From NCBI GenBank assembly GCA_934167465.1, contig CAKPKR010000001.1:287030-351029 (forward strand): a DNA stretch of 64,000 nt, given 5' to 3'. Shown here piece after piece: positions 1,838-52,008 of the stretch. Source of the stretch: an uncultured Bacilli bacterium. Lineage in GTDB: Bacteria; Bacillota_I; Bacilli_A; RF39; UBA660. Every line of letters begins with the position of its first letter. The first letter of the stretch is position 1. The position numbers and the translations under genes are program-made. A model generated the notes under the pieces. It did not search any database. It saw only the letters and a program-made list of their open reading frames with translations, and was not told the origin of the DNA.

Positions 1838-3722
1838 TTTTATACTCCTTTTTTAAATATACCATTAAAATAGAAATATCTGCTGGATTTACTCCACTTA
1901 TTCTTAAAGCTTGACCAATTGAAGTAGGCATTACTTCTTTTAATTTTTGTCTTGCTTCGCTAGCAATATTTTTAATGTTATCATAATTAATATCTTCAGG
2001 TATTTTTTTATTTTCTAATTTCATCATTTTTTCGGCTTCTTTAATAGCTTTATTTATATACCCTTCATATTTAATGTTAATCTCTACTTCTTCTTCTATT
2101 TCTTTGTCATATTTTATATCAATTAATTTTTCTTTTCTTAAATTTTCCAATGTTATTTCTGGTCTTTTTAAAAAGTTATAAGCACTTATACCATCTTTCA
2201 AAGGAGTAGTATTTAAATTATTAAATTTTTCTAAATTATCTTTGGAAGGAGTAATCTTAATATTTTGAAGTTCTTTAGTCATTTTTTCAATATTATTTAT
2301 TTTATTTAAATATCTATTATATTGTTCTTCATTAATTAATCCTACTTCATATCCATGTTTTCTTAATCTCAAATCAGCATTATCGTGTCTTAATAATAAA
2401 CGATATTCTGCTCTTGAAGTTAATAATCTATATGGGTCTCTTATTCCTTTTGTAACTAAATCATCAATCAATACACCTATATATGCTTCATTACGGCCTA
2501 ATATTAACGGTTCTTTTTGTTCTAATTTTAAAACAGCATTTATACCGGCAATCAAACCTTGGCAAGCTGCTTCTTCATAGCCACTTGTTCCATTAATTTG
2601 TCCAGCTGTAAATAAATTTTCTATTAGTTTTGTTTCTAATGATTGTTTTAATTGTGTTGGATATATTGAATCATATTCAATTGCATATGCATATTTTAAT
2701 ATTTTTGCGTGTTCTAATCCTGGTAAACTATGAACCATTTTTTCTTGAATATCATATGGCATACTTGTTGAAAATCCTTGTAAATAAATAGTATTACCAT
2801 AAGTTGGATCATCACTTATTCTGCTTTCAGGTTCTAAAAATAATTGATGTCTTTCCTTATCGGCAAATCTTACAACTTTATCTTCAATTGATGGACAATA
2901 TCTTGGTCCGATTCCTTTAATATCGTCTAATCCACCATACATACTTGATTTATTTAAATTTTCTCTTATTATTTTATGAGTTTCTTCAGTTGTATAAGTT
3001 AAATGACAAGGAACTTGTTCTTCTATTTTATATAAAGGTTTTAAATCAAAGGAAAAAGTTAAATATTCAGGATCACCTAATTCTATTCGTGTTTTTGAAA
3101 AATCAATTGTATTTATATCTATTCTTTGAGGTGTACCTGTTTTAAGTCTTTTTATTTTAAAACCTAATTTTTCTAAATTTTCACTTAAATAATTAGATGG
3201 TTTTTCACCATGTGGACCTTGTCTTGTTCTAGTACTTCCAACTAGTATATCAGCTTTTAAATATGTTCCAGTTGTTAAAATAACTGCATCACCATATATT
3301 TTTGTATCATCTTCTAAAATAACACCAATTACTTTGTTATTTTCTACGATCAAGTTTTCAACTATACCTTCTTTTATTTCTAAATTTTCTTGTTGTTTCA
3401 TAATTTCTAACATTTTTTTAGGATATGTTATTTTATCACCTTGAGCTCTTAATGATTTAATAGCTGGACCTTTTTTATTATTAAGCATTTTTATTTGAAT
3501 ATGAGTCATATCTGCAGTTTTTCCCATTTGTCCGCCTAAAGCATCTATTTCTCTTACAACTATTCCTTTTGCTGAACCTCCTATTGAAGGATTACAAGGC
3601 ATATCGGCAATATTTTTAATATTTCCCGTTACCAATAATGTTTTATGTCCTTTACGAGAAGCTGCTAAAGAAGCTTCACATCCGGCATGTCCGCCACCAA
3701 CTACAATGATTTCATATTTCAT
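1824..3722 (-). CDS. mnmG: tRNA uridine 5-carboxymethylaminomethyl modification enzyme MnmG (GidA)
   Basis: FAD motif IIVVGGGHAGCEA and a long conserved body. The ORF track starts at GTG 3731. I prefer the ATG at 3722 (MKYEIIVVGGG) because the RBS AAAGGAAG sits 8 nt upstream. Confidence 0.95.
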   Translation of the reverse strand: MKYEIIVVGGGHAGCEASLAASRKGHKTLLVTGNIKNIADMPCNPSIGGSAKGIVVREIDALGGQMGKTADMTHIQIKMLNNKKGPAIKSLRAQGDKITYPKKMLEIMKQQENLEIKEGIVENLIVENNKVIGVILEDDTKIYGDAVILTTGTYLKADILVGSTRTRQGPHGEKPSNYLSENLEKLGFKIKRLKTGTPQRIDINTIDFSKTRIELGDPEYLTFSFDLKPLYKIEEQVPCHLTYTTEETHKIIRENLNKSSMYGGLDDIKGIGPRYCPSIEDKVVRFADKERHQLFLEPESRISDDPTYGNTIYLQGFSTSMPYDIQEKMVHSLPGLEHAKILKYAYAIEYDSIYPTQLKQSLETKLIENLFTAGQINGTSGYEEAACQGLIAGINAVLKLEQKEPLILGRNEAYIGVLIDDLVTKGIRDPYRLLTSRAEYRLLLRHDNADLRLRKHGYEVGLINEEQYNRYLNKINNIEKMTKELQNIKITPSKDNLEKFNNLNTTPLKDGISAYNFLKRPEITLENLRKEKLIDIKYDKEIEEEVEINIKYEGYINKAIKEAEKMMKLENKKIPEDINYDNIKNIASEARQKLKEVMPTSIGQALRISGVNPADISILMVYLKKEYKNESK

Positions 3723-3800
3723 ATAAAACACTTCCTTTTTAACTTTTCATATTATACTATTTTTTTTGTTTTTATACAATAATTACATATAATTAATTGA

Positions 3801-3833
3801 TAAAAAAAATAACAAGATTATTTTGTTATTTTT
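3801..3833 (-). terminator. rho-independent terminator hairpin AATAACAA-gattatt-TTGTTATT with a flanking A/T run
   Basis: Read directly downstream of the minus-strand gene ending at 3836. Confidence 0.4.
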
Positions 3834-3835
3834 AA

Positions 3836-4864
3836 TTAATTTCCTAAAAAAATAATTCTTGCAAATCCATCTCCAATGTTTGAATATTCTATTATTGATT
3901 TATTACTAACATTTGTACTATTTATTGTTTTAGTATTTTCTTCAGCAGATTCTTTACAATTATAGCAATATATTTTTTTATTTTTTAATAAGTTATTTCC
4001 AATATAACTTGAACCTCCACCAGCAGAATAAGGGGTACAACCACCTCCATAAAGTCCACCTCCACCTCCTACTCCAGCACAAGTAGCACCTTGACCAAAG
4101 GAACCAATTGAATGATAAATTGGATTTGTATTTCCTCTACTATCATAAAAATTTCCTCCAGATGTTTGTGATGCACCAATTCCATATAATGTTACTGTAC
4201 CTTCCTTATAAGAATCGCCATTTACACCTTGAATACCTCCACCATTACCACCAGAACAAGCCATAATTGCTGCATTAGATCCACCTCCGCCTCCACCTGA
4301 TGCAACAATATAAATTGATGATAATTTTTTGCTTAATGTGGAAAGTAAGCCGGATTCTGATGCTATATGAGTTGCTCCTCCACCTGATGCAGTTAGTACA
4401 TGGCCATCATTGTCAATTTTAGCATCTCCACCACCATTATATCCACCTTTAAAAGCTTTATGTTCACCATTTCCTGAACCAGAACCTCCAACATTTATAT
4501 ATAATTTACTACCTTTTTGTAAAGTAATTTCTCCTGTTGCATATGCTCCATATCCACCTGTTTTAGATGAAGTAGACGCACCGCCTTGAGCACCCCATAC
4601 ATCTAATCTGTATTTACCATTATATGGAACTATAAATATTTGTTCAGTACCTGTGTATAAAAAATCATAAACTACTGAAAATTGATTATTTTTTTTATTA
4701 TATAATTCATTTAAAGCATCATTTACGCTCATACTACTTCCGTCACTGGCATTATATACTACATCACTTGCTTTATATATTGTTGCGGCATAGACTCCTA
4801 GCCCAGTAAATATTATTCCACATATTACTATTAAAAATATTCTACTTTTTATTATTTTTTTCAT
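3836..4864 (-). CDS. secreted glycine-rich protein (Gly_rich-like domain). The N-terminal 55 aa are shared with the paralog at 5183-5734.
   Basis: N-terminal signal anchor MKKIIKSRIFLIVICGIIFTGLGVYA. Body includes VWGAQGGAS...YINVGGSGSGNG...IYIVASGGGGGGS...GGGGGLYGGGC. The ORF-track start at 4891 adds 9 aa. I prefer the ATG at 4864 because of the RBS AGGTGA, identity with the paralog start, and a consensus promoter upstream. Confidence 0.8.
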   Translation of the reverse strand: MKKIIKSRIFLIVICGIIFTGLGVYAATIYKASDVVYNASDGSSMSVNDALNELYNKKNNQFSVVYDFLYTGTEQIFIVPYNGKYRLDVWGAQGGASTSSKTGGYGAYATGEITLQKGSKLYINVGGSGSGNGEHKAFKGGYNGGGDAKIDNDGHVLTASGGGATHIASESGLLSTLSKKLSSIYIVASGGGGGGSNAAIMACSGGNGGGIQGVNGDSYKEGTVTLYGIGASQTSGGNFYDSRGNTNPIYHSIGSFGQGATCAGVGGGGGLYGGGCTPYSAGGGSSYIGNNLLKNKKIYCYNCKESAEENTKTINSTNVSNKSIIEYSNIGDGFARIIFLGN

Positions 4865-4880
4865 TTGATCACCTATTTCA

Positions 4881-4928
4881 ATTATATACATTCAAATAAA
4901 TGTATGTCAAGTACATTTGTTTGAATGT
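4881..4928 (-). promoter_or_regulatory. consensus sigma-A promoter: -35 TTGACA at 4905-4910, 18-nt spacer, -10 TATAAT at 4881-4886. The spacer is the palindrome TACATTCAAATAAATGTA. A second copy of the motif (TACATTTGTTTGAATGT) lies at 4912-4928.
   Basis: Read on the minus strand as TTGACAtacatttatttgaatgtaTATAATtgaaatAGGTGAtcaaATG. Confidence 0.6.
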
Positions 4929-4956
4929 GTGTTAATTTAATGTTAATGGTGATTTT

Positions 4957-5172
4957 ATGGAAATAAAAAGAATAAAAGATTTAAGAGAAGATCATGATTT
5001 ATTACAAAAAGATATAGCAAATATACTAGAAATTACTCAGCAACAATATAGTTTATATGAATTAAATATAAGAGATATGCCTTTAGATTTATTAATTAAA
5101 TTAGCTGATTATTATAATGTATCAATTGATTATATTGTGAATAGGACAAATAATAAACAAATAAAAAAATAA
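4957..5172 (+). CDS. XRE-family HTH transcriptional regulator (71 aa), paralog of 933-1133
   Basis: HTH LQKDIANILEITQQQYSLYELNIRDMP with RBS GGTGA. Divergent from the Gly-rich gene and convergent with the paralog at 5183. Confidence 0.75.
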   Translation: MEIKRIKDLREDHDLLQKDIANILEITQQQYSLYELNIRDMPLDLLIKLADYYNVSIDYIVNRTNNKQIKK

Positions 5173-5182
5173 GTTTTTAAAC

Positions 5183-5734
5183 TTATTCTATTTTATAAAT
5201 AGCAGCTACGGCTCTACCATAAAATGTTCCATATTCCATATATTCTGAAACAGTTATCGTTGACGAATTTTCCACAATACAAATATATATTTCAGCAGCA
5301 CTACTTCCTCTACCAGCTTTGTGTGAATTTGTCTCATTATAACCATTTCCTTCATGCCAAACTGATATTCTATCTATTTTTGTTATTGAACTACAACCTG
5401 TTACATTTGATAAAGCACTATATTCTGTAGTTGCTGCTGAAAATAATATAAAGTATTTTCCTTGTTCTAATGTTTTAGTTAAAAATACTTTATCTGCAGA
5501 ACCTGATATACCTGTTGAAGCTGTTGCAATCTGTGTTAAATTAAAATTTGTTAACTTATCTCTATTATTATATAATTCATTCAAGGCATCATTTACATTC
5601 ATACTACTTCCATCACTGGCATTATATACTACATCACTTGCCTTATATATTGTTGTGGCATATACTCCTAGCCCAGTAAATATTATTCCACATATTACTA
5701 TTAAAAATATTCTACTTTTTATTATTTTTTTCAT
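5183..5734 (-). CDS. secreted protein paralog of 3836-4864. It shares the N-terminal 55-aa module but has an unrelated 125-aa C-terminal domain.
   Basis: The first ~165 nt are nearly identical to the 5' end of 3836-4864 (MKKIIKSRIFLIVICGIIFTGLGVYA(A/T)TIYKASDVVYNASDGSSM(S/N)VNDALNELYN), after which the two diverge. Confidence 0.7.
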   Translation of the reverse strand: MKKIIKSRIFLIVICGIIFTGLGVYATTIYKASDVVYNASDGSSMNVNDALNELYNNRDKLTNFNLTQIATASTGISGSADKVFLTKTLEQGKYFILFSAATTEYSALSNVTGCSSITKIDRISVWHEGNGYNETNSHKAGRGSSAAEIYICIVENSSTITVSEYMEYGTFYGRAVAAIYKIE

Positions 5735-5757
5735 CTAGATCCCTACCTTCTATCAAT

Positions 5758-5788
5758 ATCTTACCCCCCCCCCAGACAAAAAAGTCAA
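5758..5788 (-). promoter_or_regulatory. promoter for 5183-5734: -35 TTGACT (5783-5788), 19-nt spacer containing a G10 homopolymer (C-run on the + strand at 5764-5773), -10 TAAGAT (5758-5763)
   Basis: Minus-strand read: TTGACTtttttgtctGGGGGGGGGGTAAGATattgatagaAGGTAGGGatctagATG. The homopolymer was counted as 7+3 C's across the line break. Confidence 0.55.
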
Positions 5789-5796
5789 GAAAAATT

Positions 5797-5826
5797 TCAA
5801 AAAAAAAATAAGTTTTTTAACTTATT
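5797..5826 (-). terminator. mnmE terminator hairpin AATAAGTT-tttt-AACTTATT followed by a U10 run on the minus strand
   Basis: The stop codon of mnmE lies inside the hairpin. The A10 run at 5797-5806 reads as a U-run on the minus strand. Confidence 0.55.
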
Positions 5827-7168
5827 TTCCTAAACAAAATCTACTAAATAATTCATCTATCAATTCTTCTTCATAGGTATCACCTATTATTTCACCTAAT
5901 AAATTCCAAATATTTTTAATATCTAATTCAATCATATCAATAGGCATATTATTATTGATATTTTTTTCTAATTCATTTATTTGTTCATTTACTTTTTTTA
6001 AAATTGCTACACTTCTAGCACTTGTTAAATAAGTCATATCTTCTTTTTCAATTTGTTCTAAATTAAATATTTTTTTAATGGTATTCTTTAATTCATCTAT
6101 TCCTTCATTATTTTTTGTACTAATATAAATAACATTATTTAATAAATTAGTGTTTAATTTTTTTTCTAAATCTATTTTATTAACAATTATAATATGATTT
6201 TTATTTTCTATTTTTTCTAATAATTCTAATTCTTCTTTTGTTATTTCTTCATTGTTATTTAAAACAAATAAGATTAAATCAGAATTATCAATTAGTTCTA
6301 AACTTTTATCAACACCAATTTTTTCAACAATATTATCAGTATCTCTAATACCAGCTGTATCAATTATATTTAGTAAAATCCCATCAATATTTACTGTTCC
6401 TTCTACTATATCCCTTGTTGTTCCTTCAATATCAGTTACTATTGCTTTGTCTTCTTCTAATAAAGTATTAAGTAAACTACTTTTTCCAACATTTGGTTTA
6501 CCTATTATTGATGTTTTAATTCCTTCTTTAATTATTTTACCATTATTTGATTTTTTTAATATATCTTCGATTTTTTCTTTTATATTTTTTATTTTTTCTT
6601 GTAATAGTGGAATAGTTACTTCTTCTACATCATCATATTCAGGATAGTCAATATTAACATTGATGTTTGCTAAAACTTGAACTAAATCTTCTCTTAAATT
6701 TCTAATTAAATTAGATACTTTTCCACTTAATTGATTAATTGCTAAATCACGAGCTTTATCAGTTTTAGCCTCAATTAAATCCATTATTCCTTCTGCTTCT
6801 TCTAAATCAATTCTTCCATTTAAAAAAGCTCTTTTAGTAAATTCACCAGGTTCTGCTAAACGGCAACCTTTCATTAATAATAATTCTAAAATTTTATTTG
6901 TTGTACTGATTCCGCCGTGACAGTTAATTTCTACAATATCTTCAGTTGTAAATGTTTTAGGTGCTAACATAACTGATACTAAAACTTCATCAATTATTTC
7001 GTTATTTTCTTTAATATAACCGTAATGAATAGTATGTGATGCTACTTTAGTTAAATCTTTTGTAAATATTTTACTAACAATTTTAGTTGCTTCTTCACCA
7101 CTAACTCTTATAATTGAAATAGCTCCTACTCCTAAAGCTGTAGATATTGCTGCTATTGTATCATTCAT
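5822..7168 (-). CDS. mnmE: tRNA modification GTPase MnmE (TrmE)
   Basis: G-domain motifs GKPNVGKSSLLN and DTAG, and a C-terminal CLGK. I prefer the start at 7168 (MNDTIAAIST, RBS AAAGGTG) over the ORF-track start at 7198. Confidence 0.9.
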   Translation of the reverse strand: MNDTIAAISTALGVGAISIIRVSGEEATKIVSKIFTKDLTKVASHTIHYGYIKENNEIIDEVLVSVMLAPKTFTTEDIVEINCHGGISTTNKILELLLMKGCRLAEPGEFTKRAFLNGRIDLEEAEGIMDLIEAKTDKARDLAINQLSGKVSNLIRNLREDLVQVLANINVNIDYPEYDDVEEVTIPLLQEKIKNIKEKIEDILKKSNNGKIIKEGIKTSIIGKPNVGKSSLLNTLLEEDKAIVTDIEGTTRDIVEGTVNIDGILLNIIDTAGIRDTDNIVEKIGVDKSLELIDNSDLILFVLNNNEEITKEELELLEKIENKNHIIIVNKIDLEKKLNTNLLNNVIYISTKNNEGIDELKNTIKKIFNLEQIEKEDMTYLTSARSVAILKKVNEQINELEKNINNNMPIDMIELDIKNIWNLLGEIIGDTYEEELIDELFSRFCLGK

Positions 7169-7670
7169 TTTTTTCACGCACCTTTCTTTTAATACCAATT
7201 AACATTGGTAATGATTTTGGATGTTTAAATACTTCTAGAGAAACATATTTATCAGCAATATTAACAATCCAACCTTCAGCATATTTTGGAGGTATTTTAT
7301 TTAATGGAAACATATGTCTTAAAATAGAATTTTCTATTTTTTCATTTAATAAATCAGAAAAATAAATTCTTGAATTTAGTAAGGCATCTCTAGCATGAGT
7401 AAAACCATGTTTTTGAAAAAATTTTTCTTTAGATATTTTTTTTTGCCAATCTTCACAATAAAAATCATGTAATAATCCAGCGATTGCTGCACTTTTATAA
7501 TCTTTATTAAATTTTTTAGCAATTACATATGCTACTTTTGAAACTGCTAAACAATGTGTATAAACACTAATATCTCCATGATGTTTATAAAATTTTCTTC
7601 TTTGAAATTCACTACTATTTAGAATAGGATTTACTATTTCATAATATTCAACTTTATCTTTAAATGTCAT
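7161..7670 (-). CDS. HD-domain phosphohydrolase (169 aa)
   Basis: H...HD motif (VYTHCLAVS...GLLHDFYCEDW) with a C-terminal HMFP. Confidence 0.55.
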   Translation of the reverse strand: MTFKDKVEYYEIVNPILNSSEFQRRKFYKHHGDISVYTHCLAVSKVAYVIAKKFNKDYKSAAIAGLLHDFYCEDWQKKISKEKFFQKHGFTHARDALLNSRIYFSDLLNEKIENSILRHMFPLNKIPPKYAEGWIVNIADKYVSLEVFKHPKSLPMLIGIKRKVREKNE

Positions 7671-19407: not shown

Positions 19408-19451
19408 TGATAAAAAACTTGCTAAAAAAAATAAAATATTATATATTATTA

Positions 19452-19530
19452 ATGACACAACATTTATATTCGAACCAGGTCAGATGAGGAATCAAGCAGC
19501 CTTAAGATTCACTAAATGTGTGTGTCTTTT
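19452..19530 (+). ncRNA. ffs: small signal-recognition-particle RNA (4.5S/ffs-like hairpin). Boundaries are approximate.
   Basis: Domain IV core CCAGGUCAG...GGAAUCAAGCAGCC matches the conserved 4.5S motif. The flanks GACACAACAUUUA / UAAAUGUGUGUGUC form the long helix. Promoter TTGCTA-17-TATATT upstream and a U7 run downstream. Confidence 0.55.
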
Positions 19531-19549
19531 TTTATAATTGGTGATGAAA

Positions 19550-31974: not shown

Positions 31975-32197
31975 TTACATATTGAAAAGTTATGAAGGAA
32001 AGAGAAATAATTGAATTTTTAAAGAGAACTAGTGGTTGGTGTAAACTAGTAAAATTTATTATTTTAAATGGTTCTGGAATTGTTTAAGTGAATAATTAGC
32101 TTATACCGTAAATATGCGTTAAATATAAGAGGTAGATTTATCTATGAATTAAGGTGGTACCACGTGAACTACGTCCTTATTAGGATGTAGTTTTTTT
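31975..32197 (+). promoter_or_regulatory. T-box riboswitch leader (probably Met-specific) with terminator
   Basis: T-box motif AATTAAGGTGGTACCACG at 32147-32164 (consensus AATTAGGGTGGTACCGCG). Terminator CTACGTCCT-tatt-AGGATGTAG followed by T7 at 32169-32197. Stem I candidate at ~31990-32060 with AUGA at 31991-31994. Confidence 0.6.
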
Positions 32198-44355: not shown

Positions 44356-44708
44356 TTTTTGTCGGAATTTGTATGTAAAAAAATAGATGAAAATAATAAA
44401 AAATATAGCAGAATATAAAACGATATATTTAATTGGTGTTAGTGCATTTCTTCTTAAAAGAGGGCGGTGATATTATGACAAAAAGAGAAATATCTTTATT
44501 TTTAATAATAATTTTATTATTTGTTATAATTTTTACTTTATTATATAGATAATAAAAATTGCACTATCACAGGGGGGATAGTGCTTTCCAAAAACATTTT
44601 AGGAATGTATCTAACTCTTTAGACAATTAGATATATCCTTTTTTATTGTATGAGCAATAACTCATCTATATACATAGTAACACTTTAAAAAATTTTTTTC
44701 AAGTTTTT
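44356..44708 (+). repeat. copy A of a duplicated ~350-bp module: sORF + hairpins + terminator + convergent antisense promoter. See findings.
   Basis: About 85-90% identical by eye to 52009-52358. Confidence 0.75.
44475..44552 (+). CDS. 25-aa hydrophobic peptide MTKREISLFLIIILLFVIIFTLLYR (candidate type I toxin)
   Basis: ATG preceded by AGAGGG. Single TM-like segment. A paralogous sORF with the same length and frame lies at 52128-52205. Confidence 0.4.
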   Translation: MTKREISLFLIIILLFVIIFTLLYR

Positions 44709-48122: not shown

Positions 48123-48202
48123 TTTCATTGCTTTTTATGTTATAATATAAGAGCATTAAATTTCTATGACTAATGTTAGTCATGGCGGAAGGAGATAGTA
48201 AT

Positions 48203-51933: not shown

Positions 51934-52008
51934 AAATTCACTTATTAGTGAATTTTTTGTAGTTATTGATAATGGCATTGTTTAGTAGTAATTATATATT
52001 AGGAAAAA

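Follow-up and report, generated by a model that had tools for sequence, protein, structure and literature searches.

A run of ten guanines in the promoter of a putative surface-protein gene from an uncultured gut Bacilli lineage is likely to act as a slipped-strand switch, of either the on/off or the volume type, for a variable family of surface proteins. A preliminary description of the 64,000-nucleotide stretch of DNA analysed here (the window) had put the tract forward as a candidate for such a switch. The candidate is supported by length polymorphism between identical flanks, by the near invariance of A/T runs used as controls, and by conservation of the promoter cassette in which the tract lies. 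The same description took the locus for a single switch. The layout of a switch stands, but the single copy does not: the tract is one copy of a family-wide repeated cassette, carried in the window on an island of about 2 kb.

The poly-G tract and its promoter

The GC content of the window is 24.6%. Ten consecutive C's on the + strand at 5764-5773, which are G10 on the coding strand, form its sole long G/C homopolymer, as had been claimed. Other G/C runs are no longer than six nucleotides (one G6 and two G5), and A/T runs extend to 9-10. With p(C) = 0.10, about 1e-5 occurrences of C10 or G10 are expected by chance in 128 kb (both strands of 64 kb), so this tract is not a chance occurrence.

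On the minus strand, the elements follow one another in the order CTTGACT-TTTTTGTCT-GGGGGGGGGG-TAAGAT-ATTGATAGAAGGTAGGGATCTAG-ATG. The -35 hexamer TTGACT (5783-5788) is separated from the tract by a fixed spacer portion, TTTTTGTCT (5774-5782), and the -10 hexamer TAAGAT (5758-5763) adjoins the tract directly. The tract thus lies exactly between the two hexamers named in the preliminary description, whose coordinates match, and the spacer is 9 + 10 = 19 nt long. Upstream of the -35 hexamer is an A/T-rich block, TGAAATTTTTC (5789-5799), which we infer from its sequence to be an UP element. Downstream, TAAGAT is followed by a short leader (5735-5757) with ATTGATAG, a Shine-Dalgarno (SD) sequence AAGGTAGGGA (5740-5749) and ATCTAG, and then by the ATG (5732-5734) of the controlled gene. 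This TTGACT/TAAGAT promoter is absent from the output of a generic promoter scanner because the scanner accepts only spacers of 16-18 nt.

The ATG begins 29 nt downstream of the tract, and the mnmE stop codon lies 48 nt upstream of it. Because the tract is crossed by no open reading frame (ORF) of a gene, any effect of its length should be transcriptional; a mini-ORF (TTG...) that overlaps it reaches a stop at G9, G10 and G11 and never joins the frame of the gene. The intrinsic terminator of mnmE (5799-5828, minus strand), identified by sequence and folding as a hairpin AAAATAAGTT-AAAA-AACTTATTTT followed by T10 (5799-5808), insulates the G-tract promoter from upstream transcription. Folding of the intergenic region yields this terminator and otherwise no significant structure (z = -0.36). 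A permissive Rfam search of 3500-7500 and one of the entire window at gathering score both find nothing at the G-tract locus.

The controlled gene and its paralog

The gene behind the tract (5183-5734, minus strand) encodes a 183-aa protein that consists of an N-terminal signal/anchor helix ending ...GVYA/ATTYK, a conserved module (YKASDVVYNASDGxSMNVNDALNELY) and a C-terminal beta-sandwich. It matches no family in Pfam, NCBIfam or PHROG and is probably secreted or membrane-anchored, which makes it a putative surface protein. The preliminary description had labelled it the second paralog, and correctly so, since its first 59 aa are common to the product of a gene at 3836-4864 on the same strand. 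The shared portion is a 179-nt coding repeat (5556-5734 and 4686-4864, minus strand, 94% DNA identity) that starts exactly at the ATG, serves as a recombination substrate (see below), and beyond which the two proteins are unrelated. The paralog at 3836-4864 (paralog 1, 342 aa) has a glycine-rich domain, matching PF12810 (ALK_LTK_GRD) with 119 bits against a cut-off of 24.5; the 183-aa protein has no match to this family.

Paralog 1 has a different promoter that contains no G tract. Its hexamers form a perfect TTGACA-18-TATAAT arrangement (4910-4881, minus strand) overlapping a palindrome with 20-bp arms (4885-4931). A gene for a 71-aa XRE-family helix-turn-helix (HTH) protein (4957-5172, plus strand) points away from paralog 1 and towards the G-tract gene, and the palindrome is presumed from its sequence and position to be the operator of this repressor. 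The arrangement suggests an expression site under repressor control, unlike the G-tract site, which is proposed to be stochastic. A second HTH gene (933-1133, 77-81% DNA identity) is found divergent from a small gene with a hydrophobic N terminus (61-837).

Near-identical, self-palindromic terminator hairpins (AATAAGTTTTTWAACTTATT) occur on either side of the 183-aa gene, at 5166-5200 and 5794-5828, and register as a direct repeat and also as an inverted one. The first of them lies between the convergent HTH and 183-aa genes and would terminate transcription of the two genes, one from each side.

The G-tract promoter, the 183-aa gene, the HTH gene and paralog 1 together occupy about 2.0 kb (~3781-5798) between the mnmE terminator and the mnmG promoter. 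In two assemblies (L072 and L073, 2047-2130), mnmG follows mnmE directly and the MnmE protein is identical. These empty sites indicate that the whole segment is an accessory island.

A repeated promoter cassette for a gene family

Homologues of the 183-aa protein fall into at least ~100 clusters. They share an N terminus (MKKIIKSRIFL...GVYAATTYKASDVVYNASDGTSMNVNDALNELYNK) that is conserved over about 57 aa, and beyond it they diverge completely, with unrelated C termini that are globular beta-sandwich, glycine-rich or DUF domains. The promoter is shared as well. A cassette comprising an UP-like AAATTTCT, CTTGAY, 9 nt, Gn, TATRAT, a short leader, an SD sequence and an ATG opening MKKIIK stands upstream of at least seven other paralogs from the same metagenome samples. 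At least eight cassette-bearing loci are therefore present in these samples: one at mnmE, two at aspS, two at ileS and three at yabP. The DNA of family members P0036, P0070 and P0028, which come from the same samples as the window locus, has in each case CGAACAAAATTTCT-N-CTTGAY-TTTTACGYCT-Gn-TATRAT-(~20 nt)-ATG. The module is often found at neighbouring family genes as well. In sister cassettes, CGAACAAAATTTCT takes the place of the A/T-rich block of the window, TATGAT or TATAAT takes that of TAAGAT, and the leader motif AGAAAGTAGGA..ATG is kept in the family.

The association of long G runs with this layout is without exception in about 74 related loci. All 53 runs of G>=7, searched on either strand, are on the coding strand between CTTGAY-N9 and TATRAT, with the start codon of a family member 20-25 nt further downstream. 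Across 17 distinct variants of the flanks, CTTGA, the 9-nt length of the fixed spacer portion and TAnnAT are conserved while other positions drift. CTTGA is kept in 16 of the 17, the exception being CTTTA in one low-coverage contig (L007), and the fixed portion nearly always ends in CT. The total spacer is thus 9 + n(G). Two other species have the same layout, with TTGAAA-9nt-G10-TATAAT (L014) and TTGACA-9nt-G10-TATGAT (L018). That CTTGA and TAnnAT keep their distances from the tract, in the cassette variants and in both other species, bears out the -35 and -10 assignments made from the window alone.

Altered versions also occur. One related metagenome-assembled genome (MAG) has an interruption (GAGGGGGAGGG) in the tract, which there lies between TTGGCA and TATGAT with a 20-nt spacer (L015, 2455-2475); this copy of the switch may have decayed or become phase-locked. 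G9 tracts in the context ACT-G9-TGCAATACAATAG are present in a Bacilli MAG from rabbit gut (L029 2459-2467 and L031 2457-2465). These follow terminators directly and precede two distant family members; their flanks are different, and no -35 element is obvious where the other tracts have one. Association with poly-G predates the cassette of the human lineage.

Variation in tract length

The preliminary description had pointed to heterogeneity in tract length as the sign of a switch, and public metagenome contigs display it. At the mnmE locus, which is that of the window, 11 independent assemblies have G10 and three have G11, with identical or near-identical flanks. G10 is found in the window, ERZ27287303, ERZ27287355, ERZ4561110, ERZ4560118, ERZ28617201, ERZ27263840, ERZ941759, ERZ941712, ERZ28614653 and ERZ27287277, and G11 in ERZ4560110, ERZ4561431 and ERZ28615372, which represent three independent samples. 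One contig (L002) is 100% identical to the window. Another (L003) is 99.975% identical over 3955 nt, and an extra G is the sole difference.

Sister loci, where orthologues with identical 18-nt flanks were compared, range from G8 to G11, with a single G12. The P0036 locus has G8 and G9 once each and G10 four times, and the gene downstream of it has G9 once and G10 four times. At the ileS-proximal locus (P0070), there are one G9, three G10, four G11 and one doubtful G12 at a contig end. A 294-aa gene has one G9 and two G10, the yabP-proximal locus (P0028) has three G9 and two G10, and two further cassettes on L064 both have G10. Pooled over all loci, the tally is one G8, seven G9, 28 G10, seven G11 and one G12, these lengths having been read from assembly contigs, which represent a population consensus, with several variant contigs at 2-6x coverage. 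Illumina indel errors are elevated in long G runs, and reads may be mis-assigned between paralogs where the flanks of the cassette are repeated in the genome. Length variants are found in MEGAHIT k141 contigs as well as in low-coverage SPAdes contigs. G10 is the mode at the mnmE locus, in the pool and at most loci, but not at every sister locus. G8 and G9, which give spacers of 17 and 18 nt, are restricted to sister loci; the mnmE locus shows G10 and G11 alone. Cassettes on a single contig can differ in length (G9 and G11 on L052; G8 and G10 on L049), indicating that the tracts vary independently.

A control set was assembled from homopolymers of at least 8 nt in the same contig groups that have identical 18-nt flanks in at least three assemblies. 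All six G tracts in this set are variable, as against one of 17 A/T runs of 8-10 nt (Fisher p ~7e-5), and the lone variable A/T run deviates in a single assembly. The T10 of the mnmE terminator, only 26 nt from the tract, is invariant among assemblies with the same flanks. Seven contigs (L006, L047, L048, L049, L050, L060 and L064) have an end no more than about 25 nt from a G tract, and L006 starts inside one. Such breaks are consistent with length heterogeneity within a sample or, equally, with branching of the assembly graph at a repeated cassette. A pattern scan of JGI metagenomes, using exact flanks and a variable gap, gave a single match, to an unrelated GC-rich sequence and due to chance.

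Recombination between cassettes

Some contigs join parts of different loci. In two from different samples (L008 1-979 and L009 1-877; window 4686-5745), the 183-aa coding sequence stands behind the promoter of paralog 1 that is divergent from the HTH gene. L008 has a periodicity of exactly 870 nt (109 of 109 positions match), and the two 179-nt repeats start the same distance apart. This agreement indicates a tandem duplication, or an excised circle, produced by recombination between the repeats, and the unit involved comprises a promoter, the N-terminal repeat, the 183-aa C terminus and the HTH gene. At the start of L006 (1-40), the 183-aa gene is found behind a TATAAT/AGATCTAGAAAGTAGGAATTTATA leader that is typical of another locus. 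In L066 (150-240), an upstream half of the type seen in L046 (100-190) is joined to the P0028 leader. The breakpoints in L006 and L066 are at or next to the G tract. Taken together, the four recombinant contigs show that the cassette is also a substrate for recombination. Among 10 contigs that carry the paralog-1 protein, none has the G-tract promoter in front of paralog 1, the arrangement that a deletion would leave.

Genomic setting and distribution

With rnpA-yidC-jag-mnmE ... mnmG-rsmG and dnaA-dnaN, the window represents the origin region of a Firmicute of low GC content. Exact-protein look-ups place the locus in human gut metagenomes, Hadza and others. The sister loci adjoin the sporulation genes yabP and yqfD. 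Their assignment to one genome is based on shared samples and near-identical family sequence, and on these grounds the sister cassettes probably reside in the same uncultured spore-forming gut Bacilli organism as the window locus.

Rfam matches at gathering score in the window are a small signal recognition particle (SRP) RNA, a T-box leader, an L31 leader and a tRNA (19444-19540, 31983-32181, 48164-48194 and 63475-63547, respectively). The SRP RNA is of the small type, not the large type of Bacillus, which we take to fit a lineage near the Erysipelotrichales/Mollicutes or Lactobacillales rather than the Bacillales. An intergenic repeat of about 350 nt occurs at 44356-44702 and 52006-52350 (88-93% identity), and again upstream of the ileS G-tract gene cluster (~198-563 of L052, L057 and L058). 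The only G6 of the window lies inside a hairpin of this repeat, CACTATCACAGGGGGGATAGTGCA, which matches no Rfam family at gathering score.

A model for switching

The proposed mechanism begins with a G homopolymer that is hypermutable and forms part of a SigA-type promoter spacer. [quoted passage not shown] By analogy, G8 and G9 (17- and 18-nt spacers) are predicted to give high expression, G10 (19 nt) would be low or off, and G11 and longer would be off. This assignment of lengths to ON and OFF states is derived from the rule of a 17 +/- 1 nt spacer and from the porA, tp0126/tpr and vlp/maa2/vmm precedents, which have been established by experiment. Switching is inferred to take place within clones and at a high rate. 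At least eight family members, probably all belonging to a single organism, have a cassette each; independent slippage of the tracts would equip the population with a combinatorial, heritable and reversible repertoire of surface proteins, as is typical of contingency loci.

Both lengths seen at the mnmE locus, G10 and G11, correspond to spacers (19 and 20 nt) that are predicted to be poor. If the analogy holds, the usual state of this locus, with its modal G10, is probably low or off rather than on. The G10 mode fits either of two situations: most family members may stay low or off across the majority of populations, or tract lengths may be at a mutational equilibrium around 9-10. On the other hand, G10 could itself be a selected, functional 'on' length, because it is modal in the pool and at most loci and is present in two other species. 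An optimum of 19 nt created by the helical geometry of poly(dG) was considered and rejected, since the change in twist, roughly estimated at ~7 degrees over 10 bp, cannot offset 2 bp.

Alternative explanations

It is unlikely, though it deserves the most attention among the rivals, that the tract is a fixed-length promoter element, such as a regulator site or an alternative-sigma -10, with length differences that are sequencing or assembly noise and no switching at all. G10 is modal at most loci and occurs in two other species, as a fixed element would, and some variant contigs have only 2-3x coverage. Noise, however, does not readily account for variants at all six testable G loci when only one of 17 A/T controls varies, for lengths that span G8-G11 (G12 in the one contig-end case), or for G11 at mnmE in three independent samples. 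Variants also appear in both MEGAHIT k141 and SPAdes contigs, and cassettes on one contig differ. In the alternative-sigma version, the last three G's and the following TAT would form a SigB-type GGGTAT; this and GGGTAA resemble the -10 consensus of B. subtilis SigB. The CTTGAC that is conserved 9 nt upstream is as expected for SigA and not for SigB, and even with an alternative sigma factor the tract would set the spacer length all the same.

A still less probable view treats the cassette mainly as portable homology for shuffling C-terminal cassettes and promoters, with the G tract as a by-product or a recombination hotspot. Recombinants (L008/L009, L006 and L066) are real, and the island is absent in some strains. 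Yet recombination needs homology rather than a homopolymer, and a G10 in a genome of 25% GC would decay unless selected, whereas this one is kept between -35 and -10. A change of a single base in length between perfectly identical flanks is a mark of slippage, not recombination, and the two roles are not exclusive in any case. Very improbable indeed is a phase-variation tract that acts by translational frameshifting, or an RNA-level element in the 5' leader such as an attenuator or a G-quadruplex. Poly-G tracts most often exert their effect inside ORFs in Campylobacter, Neisseria and Haemophilus, which would recommend the frameshift reading, but here the tract lies between the mnmE stop codon and the ATG, and reading the three frames across it, including the mini-ORF with its stops at G9, G10 and G11, rules this reading out. 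Riboswitch and attenuator readings find no support in the Rfam and folding results, which offer no structure but the mnmE terminator. An intramolecular G-quadruplex is impossible for a single G10, and with the -10 element downstream of the tract, the tract is not transcribed from the G-tract promoter. An inverton was also considered and rejected. The locus has one orientation in all assemblies and no recombinase gene in its neighbourhood, and the only flanking inverted repeat (5166-5200, 5794-5828) is the pair of self-palindromic terminators.

Implications

With slightly more confidence than doubt, we propose that a widespread, uncultured spore-forming Bacilli lineage of the human gut has a Vlp-like 'phasome', in which a portable poly-G cassette precedes at least eight genes from a polymorphic family of secreted or anchored beta-sandwich proteins, independent slippage sets the expression of each, and these switches are combined with recombinational shuffling via the 179-nt repeat and with XRE-controlled expression sites. 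A literature search for homopolymer-promoter switches in gut commensal Firmicutes found none; phase variation in the gut is described there as the work of invertons, and simple sequence repeat (SSR) switches are described in pathogens. If correct, the proposal would add the first SSR-based multigene system of surface variation in gut commensal Firmicutes to a field dominated by invertons, and it could provide an evolutionary bridge to the systems of mycoplasmas. A contingency mechanism of the classic pathogen type would then operate in a commensal lineage that is still uncultured, occurs in the guts of Hadza and other people, and has relatives in a rabbit MAG. The controlled family is unannotated and putatively surface-exposed, and its members are likely targets of IgA, phage or host binding. 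There is also a blind spot for genome-resolved metagenomics, in that a MAG consensus collapses heterogeneity in tract length, and such loci break contigs and fragment MAGs.

Comparison with known systems

The porA gene of Neisseria meningitidis has G9-G11 between its -35 and -10 elements, with graded expression in the order G11 > G10 > G9 (PMC3639595). As in the window, a G homopolymer of similar length is placed in the sigma-70-type spacer of a surface-protein gene. The lengths map differently onto the spacer: in porA, G11 gives the optimal 17 bp, whereas here the fixed portion is 9 nt, so that G8 gives 17 nt and G10 gives 19 nt. Moreover, porA is a single gene of a Gram-negative pathogen, in contrast to a repeated cassette for a gene family in an uncultured gut Bacilli lineage, and the two promoters have no sequence homology.

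In Treponema pallidum, poly-G tracts of 7-12 nt in the promoters of tpr subfamily II, tprL and tp0126 vary within and between isolates (PMC7864442). Tracts of G8 or shorter are permissive and G10 is nearly off, at near-background expression, and tp0126 does best with the tract length at which its spacer measures 17 nt (PMC7864442). The likeness to the window is that several paralogous genes for putative surface proteins have poly-G promoters. The spirochaete differs in its high-GC context and in the position of the tpr tract, which is just upstream of the transcription start site rather than in a clear spacer, and it has neither a repeated UP/-35/-10 cassette nor a common 5' coding repeat. Invertons of gut Bacteroidales and Clostridia fill the same ecological role, stochastic surface variation in gut commensals, by a different mechanism; the present locus has a constant orientation and no recombinase nearby.

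Mycoplasmas provide the remaining precedents. The Vlp system of M. hyorhinis, studied by Citti and Wise in 1995, reportedly has a promoter homopolymer for each gene and combinatorial expression. Switches of the promoter-spacer homopolymer type are documented for vlp, for maa2 of M. arthritidis and for vmm of M. mycoides, and independent changes in the vlp tracts give combinatorial expression (PMC2268961). Like the family described here, Vlp is a multigene system with conserved 5' regions (homopolymer spacer, leader and signal peptide) and divergent mature domains, and its hosts are relatives of the window lineage within the low-GC Firmicutes/Bacilli radiation. Vlp promoters have poly(A) and the proteins are lipoproteins with repetitive, size-variable C termini. 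The present family has poly(G) instead; it lacks a conserved lipobox, as its members have no conserved Cys in their hydrophobic region, and tandem repeats, as TRF finds no coding array in 3700-5900. Its host, unlike that of Vlp, has the sporulation genes yabP and yqfD.

Judged at the level of sequence, the locus combines a tract in the size range that permits hypermutation (8 or more), a conserved spacer layout, a position outside the coding frame and length polymorphism, which are properties of a promoter-spacer SSR. It shares with Vlp a set of several paralogs, each with its own SSR-bearing promoter and conserved 5' region and with divergent mature domains. The type of switch is already known from porA, vlp and tp0126, and what is new is a family-wide set of such probable switches in an uncultured gut lineage. 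The predicted mechanism is that of a promoter-spacer homopolymer switch like porA, and the organization is closest to that of the M. hyorhinis Vlp system.
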